From the IMG/VR virus record IMGVR_UViG_647533158_000002: a stretch of 44,824 nucleotides of DNA. One strand, written 5' to 3'. The stretch comes from a virus. Its lineage: Duplodnaviria > Heunggongvirae > Uroviricota > Caudoviricetes. The notes below the pieces were generated by a model, which worked only from the letters and a program-made list of their open reading frames with translations, searched no databases and was not told where the DNA came from. Shown one piece after another: positions 4,859 to 44,824 of the stretch (positions within the stretch are counted from its first letter, which is position 1; the number at the start of each line of letters is the position of its first letter). Made by a program: the position numbers and the translations under genes.

Positions 4859-4959
4859 CCCTCGCACTCCCCGGAGCCTGCTGAAATTCAAGCTGCGGAT
4901 CTAAGCGGTCATCGCAACGGTGAATCAGGTGGTTGCCGTATCGTTGTGTTGTTGCGATG

Positions 4960-5060
4960 AATTTATTTAAAACTATAGTTGTTTTATCGTCAACAACAAA
5001 AGTTGTTTTATTGGTTGTTTTAGATGTAACTGGTTGTATTTAGGATGGGTTTATTTTGTG
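4960..5060 (-). promoter_or_regulatory. putative pL promoter with OL-like operator repeats
   Basis: Minus strand: -35 TTGACG (plus 4988-4993), 17-nt spacer, -10 TTAAAT (plus 4965-4970); overlapping repeats GTTGTT / AACAAC-aaaa-GTTGTT and TGGTTGTT that recur in the OR region. Confidence 0.4.
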
Positions 5061-5130
5061 ACTTGCATCGCATAGCGATAACTGAAGGGAGATTGTGGTG
5101 GTTTTTTGAACGGTATATGTGATGAGGGGA

Positions 5131-5163
5131 GGGGATAAAAGAAAACCCGGCACGGTGGCCGGG
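5131..5163 (-). terminator. rho-independent terminator closing the cI-kinase-phosphatase transcription unit
   Basis: Minus strand CCCGGCCACCGTGCCGGG hairpin followed by TTTTCTTTT, directly after the phosphatase stop. Confidence 0.6.
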
Positions 5164-5167
5164 AAGT

Positions 5168-5911
5168 TTACAAATACTTTACATTTACCGCTATAAGAGA
5201 ATAATCGTCAGTCGGGCCTTTTGTCTCTATTCTTCGCATTAGGCTGGAGGCAAACCTTGATGCGGTTGACAATGTACGGTAAGAAAATCGTGGGCGTTGC
5301 TCCCAAAAGGTATGCGCGCCATCAGACATGATGAATAGAGATAGAACACCATCGTCAAGAGGAAGTTCATCTTTATCAATATTTATGACTTGATGTTGAA
5401 GGGGGATCTTGGCAGCAAGTGCAGTTGTAATAATATTTTTACCTTTTGCATTTTTGAGCTGTCGAGCTGTATAAATACCGCTATCTATCAACATTTGATG
5501 TTGAGTATGATCTGTTGTTAATTGGATTAGCTTATTTCCATTTTTTAAATAAACACGACAGTCACCTACATGTATAATTGTTAGACCTTGATTGTGAAGT
5601 AGGCACATTGTTAAAGTTGTAGCAGCAGATGCTAATTCTTTATCAACTGACGAAAGAGATGCCACCTTTTCTTGTAGGGTCTTAAGTAAGGATAAGACAT
5701 TGTCTTCATGAGTGAAGCTGTCTTTAATACTATACAAATGATTTATTACTGCTGCAGATGCTTCTTTTCCTCCTTTATAACCACCAACCCCATCAGCTAT
5801 AGCCATAAGATAACCATTTGGTGTTTGAAGTGGATAAAGCACGCTATCTTGATTTTCCCTGCCATTATGTTTTGGTACAGAAAATATGGATGATGAGAGT
5901 ATGCTAATCAT
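5168..5911 (-). CDS. PP2C-family (PPM) Ser/Thr protein phosphatase
   Basis: 247 aa; PP2C motifs visible: AIADGVGG, HVGDCRVY, LIDSG, MSDGAH; ATG overlaps the kinase TGA stop (ATGA) indicating translational coupling; AT-rich codon usage. Confidence 0.8.
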   Translation of the reverse strand: MISILSSSIFSVPKHNGRENQDSVLYPLQTPNGYLMAIADGVGGYKGGKEASAAVINHLYSIKDSFTHEDNVLSLLKTLQEKVASLSSVDKELASAATTLTMCLLHNQGLTIIHVGDCRVYLKNGNKLIQLTTDHTQHQMLIDSGIYTARQLKNAKGKNIITTALAAKIPLQHQVINIDKDELPLDDGVLSLFIMSDGAHTFWEQRPRFSYRTLSTASRFASSLMRRIETKGPTDDYSLIAVNVKYL

Positions 5912-6633
5912 AAGCGTTTCAACTCCAATTCCTCAAAGATCTGCTCTACGGTCAGGAATCTTTTGTTAAGTTGTCTATGCGTACATTTGTTTATTATATC
6001 ATCAAAACCATCAATATTTAATTCTTCAATTAAAATACCAATTGAATATATATCTGATTGTTTTGAATATCCGTTGAGGAAAACGTTGTAATCAAAGTAT
6101 TTAGGAGTAGCGGGGTATTGGCCAATTTGTGTTAATAGCTGTGTATTGGCATCTGGTGACACATTTTTTGCAAGGCCGAAGTCAGATAACTTATAAATTC
6201 CATCTTTAAATTTTAGTACATTTAGTGGTTTTATATCCCGATGAAGATATCCTTTCTTATGAATCCATCCGACGGCATTTAGTACCATTTTTACAATAGA
6301 GATTTTTTCAGCCTTTGTAAGAGTTCCACTTTTTATTTCTTCTTCAAGATTTGTTTCTGCTAGTTCCATTACGAACCAAGGCTGAGCATTCTGTAAGTGG
6401 CATATGAATATTTGGACAATATTAGTATGCAGGCATTCAGTTTGATATCTTACTTCTCGTTCAAATCTGGTAAAGAGTTCAGGATCTGTTGCATCAGGTC
6501 GTAAAATTTTTCTGGCATATAGACCACAAATTTTTCTTTGTGAGTTATATAACCTTATTTTTTCTACAAGGCCAAAACCGCCAGAACCAATTACTTCTAG
6601 GGGTTCTATTAGGTAATTCCCACGTTCTTCCAT
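5908..6633 (-). CDS. Hanks-type (eukaryotic-like) Ser/Thr protein kinase
   Basis: 241 aa; Gly-rich loop IGSGGFGLV, catalytic loop HRDIKPLN, DFG motif (LSDFGLAK); AAGGA RBS 7 nt upstream of ATG at 6633; AT-rich relative to flanks. Confidence 0.85.
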   Translation of the reverse strand: MEERGNYLIEPLEVIGSGGFGLVEKIRLYNSQRKICGLYARKILRPDATDPELFTRFEREVRYQTECLHTNIVQIFICHLQNAQPWFVMELAETNLEEEIKSGTLTKAEKISIVKMVLNAVGWIHKKGYLHRDIKPLNVLKFKDGIYKLSDFGLAKNVSPDANTQLLTQIGQYPATPKYFDYNVFLNGYSKQSDIYSIGILIEELNIDGFDDIINKCTHRQLNKRFLTVEQIFEELELKRL

Positions 6634-6728: not shown

Positions 6729-7418
6729 TTATCCATGCTTCCTATACGTCTGCGGCATGCTCCCGATGACTTTCCCGAAGATGAATACCCGGTTCATCTC
6801 GTCTTTCTCGATTGGGTCCCACGGTGAGTAGCTCTTGTTATCAGAGATAACCAGCAGTTTATCCTTCATCATTTGCAGGCGCTTTACATGGGCTGTGTCG
6901 TCGTACAGAAACGCATAGATACCATCACCGTCGAAAGATTTAACCGTGATATCAACGAACAGCAGATCACCTGGTTCGATCGTTCCTGACATGCTGTCAC
7001 CGCGTACGTTAATGATACGGATATTTTCCGCCTTCCTGCCATCGAACATGTGACGAGCATCGTCAAACGAATACTCAACCGAACGTAGAACTTCTACAAA
7101 CTCACGGTTGATGACTCCCGGCCCGGCACTCACTTCGATATCAAGAACGTCAATCTTAAAGTATTTGGAATGGCTGACAGTTGTTTGTATTGGTTGCACT
7201 GTACTGTCTGACATATTTCCAACGCCAGAAGATAACCATTCTGCGCGCACACCCAAAGCGTTCGCGATCTCCACGATTTTAGTTGTTTGGTTAGCTTTCC
7301 CTGTTTCGATTTTCTGAATAGCTGCTTGGCTAACCCCGACCAAATCCCCAAGCGCCTTTTGTGTAAGGCCTCGCGCTAATCTGGCTTCTTTAAGTCTTTC
7401 TGAGAGTGTTGTTTTCAT
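6729..7418 (-). CDS. cI: CI-type prophage repressor (HTH_XRE N-domain + S24 LexA-like peptidase C-domain)
   Basis: HTH LTQKALGDLVGVSQAAIQKIE; Ala-Gly cleavage site (SAGPG); catalytic GDSM and VKRL motifs; start placed at ATG 7418 (MKTTLSE...) rather than upstream alternative start so that an operator region remains. Confidence 0.85.
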   Translation of the reverse strand: MKTTLSERLKEARLARGLTQKALGDLVGVSQAAIQKIETGKANQTTKIVEIANALGVRAEWLSSGVGNMSDSTVQPIQTTVSHSKYFKIDVLDIEVSAGPGVINREFVEVLRSVEYSFDDARHMFDGRKAENIRIINVRGDSMSGTIEPGDLLFVDITVKSFDGDGIYAFLYDDTAHVKRLQMMKDKLLVISDNKSYSPWDPIEKDEMNRVFIFGKVIGSMPQTYRKHG

Positions 7419-7522
7419 AGTCCAAATGTACAACCAAGGTTTTATTTCATCAAACGAAAATGGTTGTTGACTAAAAACAACCATGGTTTTAATCTTGATT
7501 CAAATTAACCACGGAGGTTGTT
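7419..7522. promoter_or_regulatory. OR-like operator/promoter region (divergent pRM / pR)
   Basis: Between divergent cI and cro; inverted repeats AACC-aa-GGTT (7432-7441), TGGTTGTT-n7-AACAACCA (7461-7484), CAACCATGGTT (7479-7489); plus-strand -35 TTGACT at 7467-7472 with candidate -10 TAATCT 17 nt downstream; cro RBS GGAGG. Confidence 0.5.
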
Positions 7523-7753
7523 ATGAACCCAGCCATCAAAACAGCGATCAATATCGTTGGTTCACAAAAGAAACTAGGCGCTGCCTGCGAAGTTTCACAG
7601 CAGGCCGTCTATAAGTGGCTTCACAACAAAGCAAAGGTATCCCCTGAACATGTCGGCAGCATTGTTACGGCTACTGGTGGAGTAGTGAAGGCATACCAGA
7701 TTCGCCCGGATCTTCCGAAGTTGTTTCCACACACTGAAAAGAACGCAGCTTAA
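7523..7753 (+). CDS. cro: Cro-like HTH repressor
   Basis: 76 aa, HTH (QKKLGAACEVSQQAVYKW), divergent from cI, strong RBS. Confidence 0.8.
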   Translation: MNPAIKTAINIVGSQKKLGAACEVSQQAVYKWLHNKAKVSPEHVGSIVTATGGVVKAYQIRPDLPKLFPHTEKNAA

Positions 7754-7822
7754 ATTTCCATTTCACGCTCTTTAACAATAAGCAATCAACTTAACAGTCA
7801 ATTCAAACTAAAGGAGTCAATT

Positions 7823-8362
7823 ATGCAACCACTTACATACCAACAGACTAGCGGATTTAGCCCGACTGCGGTGATAAATCGTTCTCAAACAAAACAAGCT
7901 CCAGGCCACGAAAAAATCCGTGATGCCGTCCGCGCCTGGTCGGCTGTAGATAATCAGGATGTCGTTGCCGCACTCATTGTGAATGAGTATCGGGAGCAGG
8001 GCGGCGGCACCATCGATTTCCCTGATGATGTCAGCCGTGCACGCCAGAAGCTGTTCCGCTTCCTCGATAACAAATTCGATTCTGAAAAATACAGAAATAA
8101 CGTGCGTGAACTGACCCCGGCAATTCTGGCGGTACTACCGCTGGAATATCGCGGTTACCTAGTTGAGCAGGATAGCTTCATGGCTCGGCTGGCTGAAATG
8201 GAAAAGGAACTCAGTGAGGCAAAGCAGGCGGTCATTCTCAACGCACCACGCCACCAGAAACTGAAGGAGATGAGTGAAGGCATTGTGTCGATGTTTCGAG
8301 TAGACCCGGATCTGGCTGGTCCACTGATGGCAATGGTCACCACCATGCTGGGGGCAATATGA
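7823..8362 (+). CDS. cII-slot protein (CII/YdaT-like family suspected), function uncertain
   Basis: 179 aa ORF with AAGGAG RBS between cro and O where lambda has cII; not similar to lambda CII by eye. Confidence 0.55.
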   Translation: MQPLTYQQTSGFSPTAVINRSQTKQAPGHEKIRDAVRAWSAVDNQDVVAALIVNEYREQGGGTIDFPDDVSRARQKLFRFLDNKFDSEKYRNNVRELTPAILAVLPLEYRGYLVEQDSFMARLAEMEKELSEAKQAVILNAPRHQKLKEMSEGIVSMFRVDPDLAGPLMAMVTTMLGAI

Positions 8363-8448
8363 CAGGTTCAGAAATGGCGAAAGCCGGTCTGCTGGAACAG
8401 AACCGACTTTCAGGTGCAAATCGTAACACACTCATTGCGGGAGGAATT

Positions 8449-9378
8449 ATGGCAAACACTGCTGAGATATTCAATTTTCCAGTGCCGGATGCGGCACAAA
8501 AGGAGCCGCGCGTGGCAGATCTCGATGATGGTTATACGCGCATTGCAAATGAGTTGCTGGAAGCTGTGATGCTGGCCGGATTAACACAGCACCAGCTTCT
8601 GGTCTTTCTGGCTGTCATGCGCAAAACATATGGCTTTAATAAAAAACTGGATTGGGTTAGCAACGAGCAACTTTCCGAATTAACCGGGATATTGCCGCAC
8701 AAGTGTTCTGCTGCAAAAAGTGTTCTGGTAAAGCGTGGGATTTTTATTCAGAGCGGGCGGAATACCGGCATTAATAATGTGGTCAGTGAATGGTCAACAT
8801 TACCCGAATCAGGTAAGAAAAATAAAGTTTACCTGAAAGAGGTAAATTTACCTGAATCAGGTAAAAAAAGTTTACCCAAATCAGGTAAAGGCGTTTACCC
8901 GAATCAGGTAAACACAAAAGACAAACTAACAAAAGACAATATAAAACCTTTTTCGTCCGAGAATTCTGGCGAATCCTCTGACCAACCAGAAAACGATCTT
9001 CCTGTGGTGAAACCGGATGCTGCAATTCAGAGCGGCAGCAAGTGGGGGACAGCAGAAGACCTGACCGCCGCAGAGTGGATGTTTGACATGGTGAAGACCA
9101 TCGCGCCATCAGCCAGAAAACCGAATTTTGCAGGGTGGGCTAACGATATCCGCCTGATGCGTGAACGTGACGGACGTAACCACCGCGACATGTGCGTGCT
9201 GTTCCGCTGGGCATGCCAGGACAACTTCTGGTCCGGTAACGTGCTAAGTCCGGCCAAACTCCGCGACAAGTGGACCCAACTCGAAATCAACCGTAACAAG
9301 CAACAGGCAGGCGTGACAGCTAGCAAACCAAAACTCGACCTGACAAACACAGACTGGATTTACGGGGTGGATCTATGA
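8449..9378 (+). CDS. O: replication initiator protein O (lambda O-like)
   Basis: N-terminal ...ADLDDGY.RI.N.LLEA...KTYG.NK... matches lambda O; contains the ori iterons in-frame; GGAGG RBS before ATG 8449; 4-nt overlap with P. Confidence 0.85.
   Translation: MANTAEIFNFPVPDAAQKEPRVADLDDGYTRIANELLEAVMLAGLTQHQLLVFLAVMRKTYGFNKKLDWVSNEQLSELTGILPHKCSAAKSVLVKRGIFIQSGRNTGINNVVSEWSTLPESGKKNKVYLKEVNLPESGKKSLPKSGKGVYPNQVNTKDKLTKDNIKPFSSENSGESSDQPENDLPVVKPDAAIQSGSKWGTAEDLTAAEWMFDMVKTIAPSARKPNFAGWANDIRLMRERDGRNHRDMCVLFRWACQDNFWSGNVLSPAKLRDKWTQLEINRNKQQAGVTASKPKLDLTNTDWIYGVDL
8800..8950. repeat. replication origin: about five iterons (TTTACCYGAATCAGGTAA-like) followed by an AT-rich stretch
   Basis: Direct repeats at 8800-8816, 8828-8845, 8848-8865, 8871-8888, 8894-8911 with about 23 bp period, then A-rich region 8912-8950; lies inside O as ori-lambda does. 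Confidence 0.75.
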
Positions 9379-10076
9379 AAAACATCGCCGCACAGATGAT
9401 TAACTTTGACCGTGAGCAGATGCGTCGGATCGCCAACAACATGCCGGAACAGTACGACGAAAAGCCGCAGGTACAGCAGGTAGCGCAGATAATCAACGGT
9501 GTATTCAGCCAGTTACTGGCAACTTTCCCGGCGAGCCTGGCTAATCGTGACCAGAACGAACTGAACGAAATCCGCCGCCAGTGGGTTCTGGCTTTCCGGG
9601 AAAACGGGATCACCACGATGGAACAGGTGAGCGCCGGAATGCGTGTTGCCCGTCGGCAGAATAGACCATTTCTGCCATCACCCGGGCAGTTTGTTGCATG
9701 GTGCCGGGAAGAAGCATCCGTTACCGCCGGGCTGCCAAACGTCAGCGAGCTGGTTGATATGGTTTACGAGTATTGCCGGAAGCGTGGTCTGTATCCGGAT
9801 GCAGAGTCTTATCCGTGGAAATCAAACGCGCACTACTGGCTGGTTACCAACCTGTATCAGAACATGCGGGCCAATGCGTTGACTGACGCGGAATTACGGC
9901 GCAAGGCTGCCGATGAACTGTCCTGTATGACCGCGCGAATTAACCGTGGTGAGGCGATACCTGAACCAGTAAAACAACTTCCTGTCATGGGCGGTAGACC
10001 TCTAAATCGTGCACAGGCTCTGGCGAAGATCGCAGAAATCAAAGCTAAGTTCGGACTGAAAGGAGCAAGTGTATGA
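9375..10076 (+). CDS. P: replication protein P (DnaB helicase loader)
   Basis: 233 aa; MKNIAAQMINFDREQMRRIANNMPEQYDEKPQVQQVAQIINGVFSQLL... recognised as lambda P. Confidence 0.95.
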   Translation: MKNIAAQMINFDREQMRRIANNMPEQYDEKPQVQQVAQIINGVFSQLLATFPASLANRDQNELNEIRRQWVLAFRENGITTMEQVSAGMRVARRQNRPFLPSPGQFVAWCREEASVTAGLPNVSELVDMVYEYCRKRGLYPDAESYPWKSNAHYWLVTNLYQNMRANALTDAELRRKAADELSCMTARINRGEAIPEPVKQLPVMGGRPLNRAQALAKIAEIKAKFGLKGASV

Positions 10077-10375: not shown

Positions 10376-10442
10376 TGAAACAGGTGAGTTGAGTTCAAAC
10401 TGTAGTACAATTCTCTCCAGTTTGAACAGGAAAGAATATGCT

Positions 10443-10775
10443 ATGAACCCTTATATTTATCTTGGTGGTGCAATACTTGCAGAGGTCATTGGTACAACCT
10501 TAATGAAGTTTTCAGAAGGTTTTACACGGTTATGGCCATCTGTTGGTACAATTATTTGTTATTGTGCATCATTCTGGTTATTAGCTCAGACGCTGGCTTA
10601 TATTCCTACAGGGATTGCTTATGCTATCTGGTCAGGAGTCGGTATTGTCCTGATTAGCTTACTGTCATGGGGATTTTTCGGCCAACGGCTGGACCTGCCA
10701 GCCATTATAGGCATGATGTTGATTTGTGCCGGTGTGTTGGTTATTAATTTATTGTCACGAAGCACACCACATTAA
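10443..10775 (+). CDS. emrE: small multidrug resistance efflux transporter EmrE
   Basis: 110 aa from ATG 10443; MNPYIYLGGAILAEVIGTTLMKFSEGFTRLWPSVGTIICYCASFWLLAQ... recognised as EmrE; four hydrophobic helices. Confidence 0.9.
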   Translation: MNPYIYLGGAILAEVIGTTLMKFSEGFTRLWPSVGTIICYCASFWLLAQTLAYIPTGIAYAIWSGVGIVLISLLSWGFFGQRLDLPAIIGMMLICAGVLVINLLSRSTPH

Positions 10776-10804
10776 AATAATTTGTTTCTAAACGACTAAA
10801 ATAT

Positions 10805-10837
10805 GGAGGCTCTTATATTTATATGAGCCTCGTTTTA
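10805..10837 (+). terminator. rho-independent terminator after emrE
   Basis: GGAGGCTC...GAGCCTC inverted repeat followed by GTTTTAT. Confidence 0.5.
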
Positions 10838-11029
10838 TGCTTTTTGTTAATGTCTTTATTTTTTATGTATTCTTTTGTGCTTTCAAGATTATGGCGTAAG
10901 AAAATTGCAATACGATTATTGTTGTATATTCAAGATAATGTGACCTTAATTGTCTTTTTAAATAAAAATTAAACAAAAATTATATCCCACCACTAAGGTT
11001 TATAAAAGCATACGTTAGCAGGTGTCACC

Positions 11030-12556
11030 ATGAAAAAAGCCATAGCATATATGCGATTTTCATCACCAGGTCAGATGTCTGGCGACTCATTAAACCGACA
11101 GAGAAGACTTATTGCTGAATGGTTAAAGGTAAATAGTGATTATTATCTTGATACCATAACATATGAAGATTTAGGATTAAGTGCATTCAAAGGAAAGCAT
11201 GCACAATCAGGAGCTTTTTCGGAATTTTTAGATGCTATAGAGCATGGTTATATATTGCCAGGAACTACATTGTTAGTTGAAAGTCTGGACAGACTTTCAA
11301 GAGAAAAAGTCGGTGAAGCGATTGAACGTCTGAAATTGATTTTGAATCACGGTATTGATGTTATAACTCTTTGCGACAATACAGTCTATAATATTGACTC
11401 TTTGAATGAGCCATATTCATTAATAAAAGCCATACTTATAGCACAAAGGGCAAATGAAGAAAGCGAGATAAAGTCAAGTCGGGTTAAATTATCATGGAAG
11501 AAAAAACGGCAGGATGCACTGGAATCAGGTACGATTATGACGGCGTCTTGTCCGAGATGGCTCTCCTTAGATGACAAAAGAACGGCTTTTGTTCCAGACC
11601 CCGACAGGGTGAAAACTATTGAGCTAATTTTTAAACTCAGGATGGAAAGGCGCTCATTGAATGCAATAGCCAAGTATTTAAATGATCATGCTGTAAAGAA
11701 TTTCTCAGGAAAAGAAAGTGCATGGGGACCTTCTGTAATTGAAAAATTATTAGCGAATAAAGCTCTGATAGGTATATGCGTACCTTCATATCGTGCAAGA
11801 GGGAAAGGGATAAGTGAAATCGCTGGCTATTATCCCAGAGTCATATCAGATGATTTGTTTTACGCTGTACAGGAAATTCGGTTGGCACCTTTTGGTATTA
11901 GCAATAGTAGCAAGAATCCTATGCTAATAAATCTACTTCGAACAGTTATGAAGTGTGAGGCTTGTGGTAATACCATGATTGTTCATGCGGTATCTGGAAG
12001 TTTGCATGGCTATTATGTTTGTCCGATGAGAAGATTACATCGATGTGACAGGCCATCAATAAAAAGAGATTTGGTTGATTATAATATCATTAATGAATTG
12101 CTTTTTAATTGTAGCAAAATTCAACCAGTTGAAAACAAGAAAGATGCTAATGAAACTTTAGAGTTAAAAATTATTGAGCTTCAGATGAAAATTAATAATT
12201 TAATCGTTGCATTGTCTGTCGCGCCTGAAGTTACCGCTATAGCAGAGAAAATAAGACTATTAGATAAGGAATTACGAAGGGCTTCGGTATCATTGAAAAC
12301 TTTGAAGAGTAAAGGTGTAAATTCATTCAGTGATTTTTATGCTATTGACTTAACCAGTAAAAATGGACGAGAGTTATGCCGTACACTTGCCTATAAAACA
12401 TTCGAAAAAATCATAATTAATACGGATAATAAAACCTGTGATATCTATTTTATGAATGGCATTGTTTTTAAACACTATCCTTTAATGAAAGTAATATCCG
12501 CCCAGCAGGCGATAAGTGCTCTCAAATATATGGTTGATGGTGAGATTTATTTCTAA
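11030..12556 (+). CDS. ybcK: large serine recombinase (DLP12 YbcK-like)
   Basis: 508 aa; N-terminal resolvase-type domain (AIAYMRFSSPGQ... with active-site Ser region), C-terminal Cys cluster (CEACGN...C...C); AT-rich. Confidence 0.85.
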   Translation: MKKAIAYMRFSSPGQMSGDSLNRQRRLIAEWLKVNSDYYLDTITYEDLGLSAFKGKHAQSGAFSEFLDAIEHGYILPGTTLLVESLDRLSREKVGEAIERLKLILNHGIDVITLCDNTVYNIDSLNEPYSLIKAILIAQRANEESEIKSSRVKLSWKKKRQDALESGTIMTASCPRWLSLDDKRTAFVPDPDRVKTIELIFKLRMERRSLNAIAKYLNDHAVKNFSGKESAWGPSVIEKLLANKALIGICVPSYRARGKGISEIAGYYPRVISDDLFYAVQEIRLAPFGISNSSKNPMLINLLRTVMKCEACGNTMIVHAVSGSLHGYYVCPMRRLHRCDRPSIKRDLVDYNIINELLFNCSKIQPVENKKDANETLELKIIELQMKINNLIVALSVAPEVTAIAEKIRLLDKELRRASVSLKTLKSKGVNSFSDFYAIDLTSKNGRELCRTLAYKTFEKIIINTDNKTCDIYFMNGIVFKHYPLMKVISAQQAISALKYMVDGEIYF

Positions 12557-14379: not shown

Positions 14380-14593
14380 AAGTGTTTTAAGAAGGAGCAA
14401 TTCTATCGATTTTGATTTTGGGAAATCAACACGGCATAATTATGTCACCGGAGCCTGAACAACTCCGGTGACTTCTGCGCTAAACGGGGACGTTTATGCG
14501 CACATACAATCCAAACTCTCTTCTCCCTTCACAGATGCAGAAATGCACCTGCAATTCTTTGCATCTAGCGTTTGACCTCTGCGGAGGTGAAGC

Positions 14594-36273: not shown

Positions 36274-39898
<3,625 letters not shown>

Positions 39899-44240: not shown

Positions 44241-44824
44241 TGGCATTCAGAATGAGTGAACAACCACGGACCATAAAAATTTATAATCTGCTGGCCGGAA
44301 CTAATGAATTTATTGGTGAAGGTGACGCATATATTCCGCCTCATACAGGTCTGCCAGCAAACAGTACCGATATTGCACCGCCAGATATTCCGGCTGGCTT
44401 TGTGGCTGTTTTCAACAGTGATGAGGCATCGTGGCATCTCGTTGAAGACCATCGGGGTAAAACCGTCTATGACGTGGCTTCCGGCGACGCGTTATTTATT
44501 TCTGAACTCGGCTCATTACCGGAAAATGTCACCTGGTTATCCCCGGAAGGGGAGTTTCAGAAGTGGAACGGCACAACCTGGGTGAAAGATGCAGAAGCAG
44601 AAAAACTGTTCCGGATCCGGGAGGCGGAAGAAACAAAAAACAGCCTGATGCAGGTAGCCAGTGAGCATATTGCGCCACTTCAGGATGCTGCAGATCTGGA
44701 AATCGCAACGGAGGGAGAAACCTCGTTGCTGGAAGCCTGGAAAAAGTATCGGGTGTTGCTGAACCGTGTTGATATATCAACTGCACCTGATATTGAGTGG
44801 CCTACGAACCCTGTCAGGGAGTAA
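44240..44824 (+). CDS. tfa: tail fibre assembly protein Tfa
   Basis: 194 aa [44 protein letters not shown]...; ATG overlaps stf stop; stop is the last codon of the window. Confidence 0.9.

Follow-up and report, generated by a model that had tools for sequence, protein, structure and literature searches.

The locus analysed here lies in a 44,824-nucleotide stretch of viral DNA (Caudoviricetes; IMG/VR record IMGVR_UViG_647533158_000002), referred to in the following as the window, and it raises the question of which kind of regulator takes the place of lambda CII when the slot between cro and O is filled by a gene for a protein of 179 amino acids. The original prediction, made from the sequence by eye, held that this protein does not resemble lambda CII, that it may be a CII-like or YdaT-like regulator fused to another domain, and that the lysis-lysogeny wiring differs from that of lambda. 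The open reading frame was found exactly as described, at 7823..8362 on the plus strand. It starts with ATG, 5 nt downstream of a Shine-Dalgarno sequence AAGGAG (7812..7817, +), and homologues with unrelated upstream contexts also show a strong Shine-Dalgarno sequence before codon 1. Since a length of 179-180 amino acids and both termini are kept in homologues from many Enterobacteriaceae genera, the frame represents a real full-length gene and neither a chance reading frame nor a local fusion. An internal start at codon 17 was also considered; the phrog_163 profile begins at this residue and the codon is always NTG, which might hint at such a start, but it is unlikely because codon 17 is CTG in 7 of 42 homologues and because the strong Shine-Dalgarno sequences stand before codon 1 in otherwise unrelated contexts. 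An exact 8-nt direct repeat, AGTCAATT, lies on either side of the ribosome-binding site (7796-7803 and 7815-7822) and is present only in the cro-cII spacer of the E. coli lineage.

The HMM searches proposed for this gene placed it firmly in the YdaT family. Pfam YdaT (PF06254) matches residues 67-154 with 102.8 bits, far above the cutoff of 21 (E=1.4e-29), and positions 1-90 of the 92 positions of the profile are covered; phrog_163, described as "CII-like transcriptional activator", matches residues 17-179 (E=4.6e-67). Phage_CII was not among the Pfam hits at E<=1, and comparison with lambda CII (taken from NC_001416) by BLASTP yielded only E=0.11 over an irrelevant stretch of 28 residues, so that the claimed dissimilarity from lambda CII was borne out together with the YdaT-like assignment. 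In a protein-level search of phage genomes, φ80 cII was 67% identical over its full length; this homologue carries the name cII both in the 1988 record X13065 and in the complete genome. The name CII is also given to the homologues of mEp237, HK639 and HK225 (52-67% identity to the window protein), and homologues are annotated as decision-making protein. In inducible E. coli phages, genes annotated as cII encode products 96-99% identical to the 179-aa protein, 16 deposited E. coli phages have the gene at 94-97% DNA identity, most of them annotating it as cII, and 2214 of 5426 complete E. coli genomes contain a DNA copy with at least 90% identity. The gene is a φ80-type cII whose product is a YdaT-family regulator with no sequence relationship to lambda CII. 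This type of gene received the name cII in φ80 decades ago, a connection that the original prediction had not made, and the copy in the window is an ordinary member and not novel; its presence here carries little weight as a discovery, given that the YdaT family has been the subject of recent structural and functional papers.

Structural modeling supported this assignment. A first AF2 model based on a shallow alignment of 26 sequences gave a pLDDT of 54 for residues 1-100 and was replaced by one based on 70 sequences, an alignment that took in the Rac branch; the latter model of the 179-aa protein reached a pLDDT of 83.7, with values above 90 for the helix-turn-helix (HTH) domain at residues 29-113. 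Helices are predicted at residues 29-43, 45-58, 70-82, 88-104, 107-113, 119-138, 143-160 and 162-175. When the model was compared to the PDB using Foldseek, only 3c4r and 8bt1 matched (probability 1.00; target TM 0.71-0.73, rmsd about 3.1 Å, about 27% identity), the rest being noise, and a profile of the subfamily likewise retrieved 8bt1, the structure of CP-933P YdaT, at E=5e-8 with the match starting at residue 24. As in these two structures, the predicted fold consists of a POU-like five-helix HTH DNA-binding domain (residues 29-113; 7907..8161, +) followed by a long helix. Within this domain, the predicted recognition helix (residues 70-82; 8030-8068, +) contains R79, which is invariant in the subfamily and aligns with the DNA-contacting R57 of Rac YdaT; the next residue, F80, is aromatic. 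Three C-terminal helices follow (residues 119-175; 8177..8347, +), of which the first (residues 119-138) corresponds to the YdaT oligomerisation helix. By analogy, the helical C-terminal region may serve in oligomerisation and the protein may form a tetramer.

Compared to Rac YdaT with its 140 residues, the extra length is made up of about 27 residues at the N-terminus, most of which are predicted to be disordered, and about 37 residues at the C-terminus, predicted to be helical. The N-terminal extension (codons 1-27; 7823..7903, +) is absent from Rac YdaT and lies outside the match to 8bt1, and its residues 1-23 are predicted to be disordered with a pLDDT below 50. The C-terminal extension, roughly residues 143-179, is specific to the subfamily and nearly identical even in homologues that are 39% identical overall. 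Both extensions are conserved throughout the φ80-type subfamily, and a second Pfam domain is not present in the 179-aa protein. The suggested fusion to another domain is therefore the part of the original prediction that did not stand: judged from these comparisons, the extensions are features of the subfamily and no foreign domain has been added.

The gene is embedded in the order cI(-)/cro/cII/O/P/ren, with the repressor gene divergent from cro. The upstream partner of cII is a cro gene of the YdaS family (7523..7753, +; 76 aa; PF15943, E=4e-17; phrog_35), which also matches the Pfam family P22_Cro, if weakly. The presumed regulatory target of the φ80-type CII is the cI repressor (6729..7418, -), a protein with HTH_3 and LexA-like Peptidase_S24 domains. 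The longest cI frame, 6729-7484 (-), would encode 251 residues; relatives have a 690-bp cI annotated with 229 residues, and translation from the internal Met at 7418, which is the likely start, gives the same length. The gap between cI and cro (7430-7491) contains the repeats ACAACCAAGGTTTTA and ACAACCATGGTTTTA and the inverted repeat ATGGTTGTT/AACAACCAT, which are probably the OR operators. On the 3' side of cII, a lambda-like O (Phage_rep_O), a lambda-like P (Phage_lambda_P) and a ren-like frame follow. In the O gene (8359/8449..9378), the ATG at 8449 opens the lambda-like N-terminal sequence MANTAEIFNF, and the public annotation of O starting at 8359 is probably too long. At the cII-O junction, a promoter scan and folding (z=-2.6) point to a candidate antisense RNA of the oop/M3 type together with its promoter (8365..8474, -): the putative promoter reads TTGAAT-17-CATAAT with a TG element (8474-8446), and a strong hairpin is located at about 8378-8412 (-). 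At the same junction φ80 and HK639 annotate M3 RNA, the homologue of oop, which lambda has at this position.

With regard to the surrounding region, the window seems to represent an intact lambdoid prophage of the DLP12 type, such as those induced from ECOR strains. An intD-like integrase is encoded at 1-1164 and the genes ren-emrE-ylcJ-ybcK at 10389-12556 are arranged as in DLP12. On chromosomes, the nearest context is that of a DLP12-like prophage adjoining tRNA-Arg/intD, and this prophage, the inducible ECOR phage PhiR47_2 and the window have the order cI-cro-cII-O-P-ren-emrE-ybcK in common. The two genes immediately left of cI (5168-6633, -) form a pair that encodes a Ser/Thr protein kinase (Pkinase, E=2.5e-32) together with a PP2C phosphatase. 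In close relatives, this slot is taken by another two-gene cassette annotated as GevT/GevA or as ASCH plus hypothetical, and it resembles a site for exchangeable accessory or defence genes. Neither an N-sized frame between kil and the genes left of cI (4891-5168) nor a cIII-sized frame left of cI was seen in the window. Near the right end, Rfam gives a full-length IS009 match (225.6 bits, 44583-44781).

How such a protein might act is suggested by its characterized relatives. YdaS and YdaT have long been flagged as equivalents of Cro and CII (PMC5917428). CP-933P YdaT activates the PRE-like promoter PRE933P and was described as "homologous to CII from Phi80" (PMC8630535); the protein, which contains a POU-like HTH domain, forms a tetramer and binds TTGATT-N6-AATCAA (PMC9986795). 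The box bound by Rac YdaT, ATGATT-N6-AATCAA, overlaps the start codon of its own gene, and acting through this site the protein activates a reverse racR promoter 29-fold; the Rac and CP-933P proteins cross-bind each other's boxes (PMC11879457). By analogy, the φ80-type CII of the window would be transcribed from pR after cro, would bind palindromes of the type TTGAT(T/A)-N6-(A/T)ATCAA and would stimulate leftward transcription of cI from a pRE-like promoter, leading to the establishment of lysogeny. We consider it very likely that this YdaT-family protein takes over the function of lambda CII, to which its sequence is unrelated. In line with the claim that the wiring departs from that of lambda, the direct repeats TTGC-N6-TTGC that constitute the lambda CII sites do not occur anywhere in the window, and hence the proposed CII-dependent element of this kind upstream of cI or int is lacking; the same search in lambda recovered the pRE, pI and paQ sites.

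We then asked where the DNA targets of the protein might be located; in the literature searched, neither a binding site nor a pRE has been found published for φ80 CII. The spacer between cro and cII gave little indication. Its best match to the canonical YdaT box has three mismatches, which is within chance, a consensus promoter scan revealed no leftward, pRE-like promoter between cro and cII, and footprinting of the upstream spacer across 61 homologous loci showed a mosaic and not a conserved sequence from which a pRE site could be derived. Rfam returned nothing relevant for the cII region. The spacer does contain an rrn-like boxA, CGCTCTTTAACAA, at 7766-7778, where lambda has nutR, followed by no obvious boxB hairpin, and a YdaT-like site with two mismatches, TTGATTCAAATTAACCAC, lies at 7495-7512 over the ribosome-binding site of cro.

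A candidate resides within cII itself. Comparison of homologues revealed an imperfect palindrome resembling the YdaT box at codons 17-22 (GTGATA-AATCGT-TCTCAA, 7871..7888), of which the window's copy keeps the TGAT...TCA core and matches the consensus at 8 of 12 positions. In homologues, the same codons read ATGATA-AATCGC-AATCAA, TTGATT-TTTGAA-AATCAG or TTGATA-TCTCAG-AATCAG. Among 42 de-duplicated homologues of φ80-type cII, which also served for an analysis of synonymous sites, codon 17 is NTG in all 42 (Met, Leu or Val), Ile18 is always encoded by ATA or ATT, ATC being absent, and codon 21 has the form NNT in all 42 across seven different amino acids. Synonymous codon identity is 0.71-0.73 over codons 1-16 and averages 0.65 over codons 2-24, compared to 0.49 elsewhere (p=7.6e-5), and this conservation peaks at the N-terminus, the very part that has the lowest amino-acid identity and is predicted to be disordered. 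Because both lambda CII and Rac YdaT have operators at the 5' end of their genes, the palindrome, though degenerate, might be a pRE-type or autoregulatory operator of φ80-type CII.

A second candidate was found about 6.5 kb downstream of the first. The sequence TTGATT-TTGGGA-AATCAA at 14412..14429 is the only TTGATT-N6-AATCAA without mismatch in the window, and it marks the left edge of the nin block, as the homology of the ylcH/ybcN nin block begins exactly at this palindrome. Perfect palindromes with different spacers occupy the same position in 2012C-4221, PhiR47_2, HK639 and CobraSix, and DLP12 of K-12 (572,284-572,301; 7285 in locus coordinates) and phage 82 have a perfect palindrome with the same spacer as the window. 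In φ80 (8719 in locus coordinates) and HK225 the site reads TTGATA-AAACAC-TATCAA, a symmetric T-to-A and A-to-T change of both half-sites, and a single position deviates in mEp237; at the nin edge of lambda, HK97 and HK022 the palindrome is absent. Across the compared loci, invariant half-sites are thus combined with about 15 different spacers. Among IMG/VR contigs with at least 8 kb downstream, which derive from closely related prophages, a perfect palindrome was present at this place in 43 of 50 loci with φ80-type CII (13 spacer variants) versus none of 43 with lambda-type CII. The CII type is itself tightly linked to a ybcN-type nin block (49 of 50 φ80-type loci versus 1 of 43 lambda-type loci), so that the association between palindrome and CII type could reflect shared ancestry, given the linked nin block and the close relatedness of the prophages; in the single lambda-type locus with a ybcN block, a different promoter-like element replaces the palindrome. 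That the palindrome might be a general feature of the YdaT family was rejected, as the complete Rac-type phage Rac-SA53 has a leader hairpin at its nin edge and no palindrome.

The left half-site doubles as a plausible -35 hexamer of a promoter-like sequence, TTGATT-17-CATAAT (14412-14440, +), which reads into ylcH/ybcN, and the palindrome overlaps the -35 element and the spacer. In record X92588 of phage 82, this place is already marked with a putative -35/-10 and with a "possible regulator-binding site"; the latter corresponds to a conserved leader hairpin (14444-14472, +; fold z=-4.5) that also reads into ylcH/ybcN and is followed by a second hairpin at 14478-14500. The loop of the leader hairpin, (C)CUGAACAAC, is almost invariant and its stem covaries (CCGGAG/CUCCGG, CUGCCAG/CUGGCAG, CGGU/ACCG, GCCAG/CUGGC). 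It precedes ninB/ybcN-type genes in φ80-type and Rac-type phages and, in locus coordinates, is located at 8753-8781 in φ80, at about 37778 in mEp237 and at about 10045-10067 in Rac-SA53.

As the half-sites of the palindrome are invariant, the spacers are free and the covariation is symmetric, the site has the properties of an operator bound by a dimer, and φ80-type CII is the obvious candidate for the binding protein since the site equals the experimentally defined YdaT box and the recognition helix is conserved. On this sequence evidence we infer that φ80-type CII binds the nin-edge palindrome, where it might act as a brake or as a switch on the nin and Q genes. No YdaT box that might correspond to pI or paQ was found near int or Q in the window. 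DLP12 keeps the site and its immunity region is gone; therefore, Rac YdaT could cross-regulate nin genes of DLP12 such as rusA. Taken together, we tentatively propose two operators that have not been described before, one within the disordered N-terminal extension of cII and one gating entry into nin and Q, although the odds are somewhat against this proposal. If it is true, the disordered N-terminal extension of CII would exist largely to carry an operator site, and the lysogeny regulator would exert direct control over access to the late-gene activator Q, a mechanism that differs from the paQ antisense promoter of lambda. These two predictions are the only part of our analysis that might be new, and they concern a subfamily whose DNA targets were not found mapped in the literature searched.

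The distribution of candidate sites also bears on the question of whether pRE-type activation of cI is the main role of the protein. As the best operator match of the window is located at the nin edge, over a promoter-like -35 element and spacer, as the consensus scan found no pRE-like promoter, and as Rac YdaT also regulates the host gene rcsA (PMC11879457), it might be argued that this YdaT-family regulator mainly controls nin/Q entry, its own gene or host genes. We regard this as improbable: the φ80 homologue is named cII and homologues are annotated as decision-making proteins, both characterized YdaT proteins activate leftward transcription of the repressor gene (PMC11879457, PMC8630535), and the box-like palindrome is kept at the nucleotide level in the 5' end of cII, where a pRE-type site would be expected. 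More doubtful still, and in our view very improbable, is a role of the protein as the toxin in a toxin-antitoxin pair formed by YdaS and YdaT. This reading is encouraged by the Pfam names YdaT_toxin and, for the neighbouring gene, YdaS_toxin, by the PGAP label "toxin YdaT domain-containing protein", which stands in every record among the E. coli matches listed, and by the toxicity of Rac YdaT upon over-expression (PMC11879457). Against it, toxicity was not seen for CP-933P YdaT (PMC8630535), the literature argues for analogues of Cro and CII and not for a toxin-antitoxin pair (PMC5917428, PMC8630535), the predicted fold is that of a DNA-binding HTH protein, and the φ80-type gene resides in the cII slot of inducible, plaque-forming phages. 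The PGAP label is misleading for this gene, which is here the lysogeny regulator of the phage. The further reading as a homologue of lambda CII that has diverged and acquired an additional domain by fusion, as might be supposed from the identical gene position and from a local likeness of the recognition helices (R57/W58 in Rac YdaT and R43/W44 in lambda CII; PMC11879457), is effectively refuted by the failure of both Phage_CII and BLASTP to connect the proteins, by the lack of a second domain and by a fold search that finds only YdaT structures.

The φ80-type CII of the window can finally be compared to four known systems. Lambda CII, a Phage_CII protein of 97 residues, has no detectable sequence similarity to the window protein, but occupies the same slot with the same presumed role, is followed by the oop antisense RNA and has its operator inside its own 5' coding region (lambda 38369-38382), to which the candidate operator at codons 17-22 of the window's gene would be analogous. 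Rac YdaT (K-12 b1358) is 35% identical over residues 29-122 (E=4e-12, hhalign probability 97%) and has the DNA-contacting arginine in common with the window protein; its box extends over the start of ydaT, and the protein activates the reverse repressor promoter. It is shorter, and its recognition helix has His-Arg-Trp where the window protein has Phe-Arg-Phe. CP-933P YdaT (8bt1), like 3c4r, belongs to the same Pfam family and has the same fold, and its recognition helix is very similar (QKIFRWLD compared to QKLFRFLD in the window protein); with about 141 residues it is devoid of the N- and C-terminal extensions, and its box is located at the end of ydaS, whereas the candidate box of the window lies inside cII. 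The closest counterpart is φ80 CII (NC_021190 35671..36213, 180 aa), which falls into the same length class, has the same N- and C-terminal extensions and is encoded at the same position between cro and an O-like gene, followed by the antisense RNA of the oop/M3 type. The CII genes of φ80, mEp237, HK639 and HK225 are paired with cI and cro immunity genes different from those of the window, and φ80 has its nin-edge palindrome at the same place as the window, with the half-site TTGATA instead of TTGATT.
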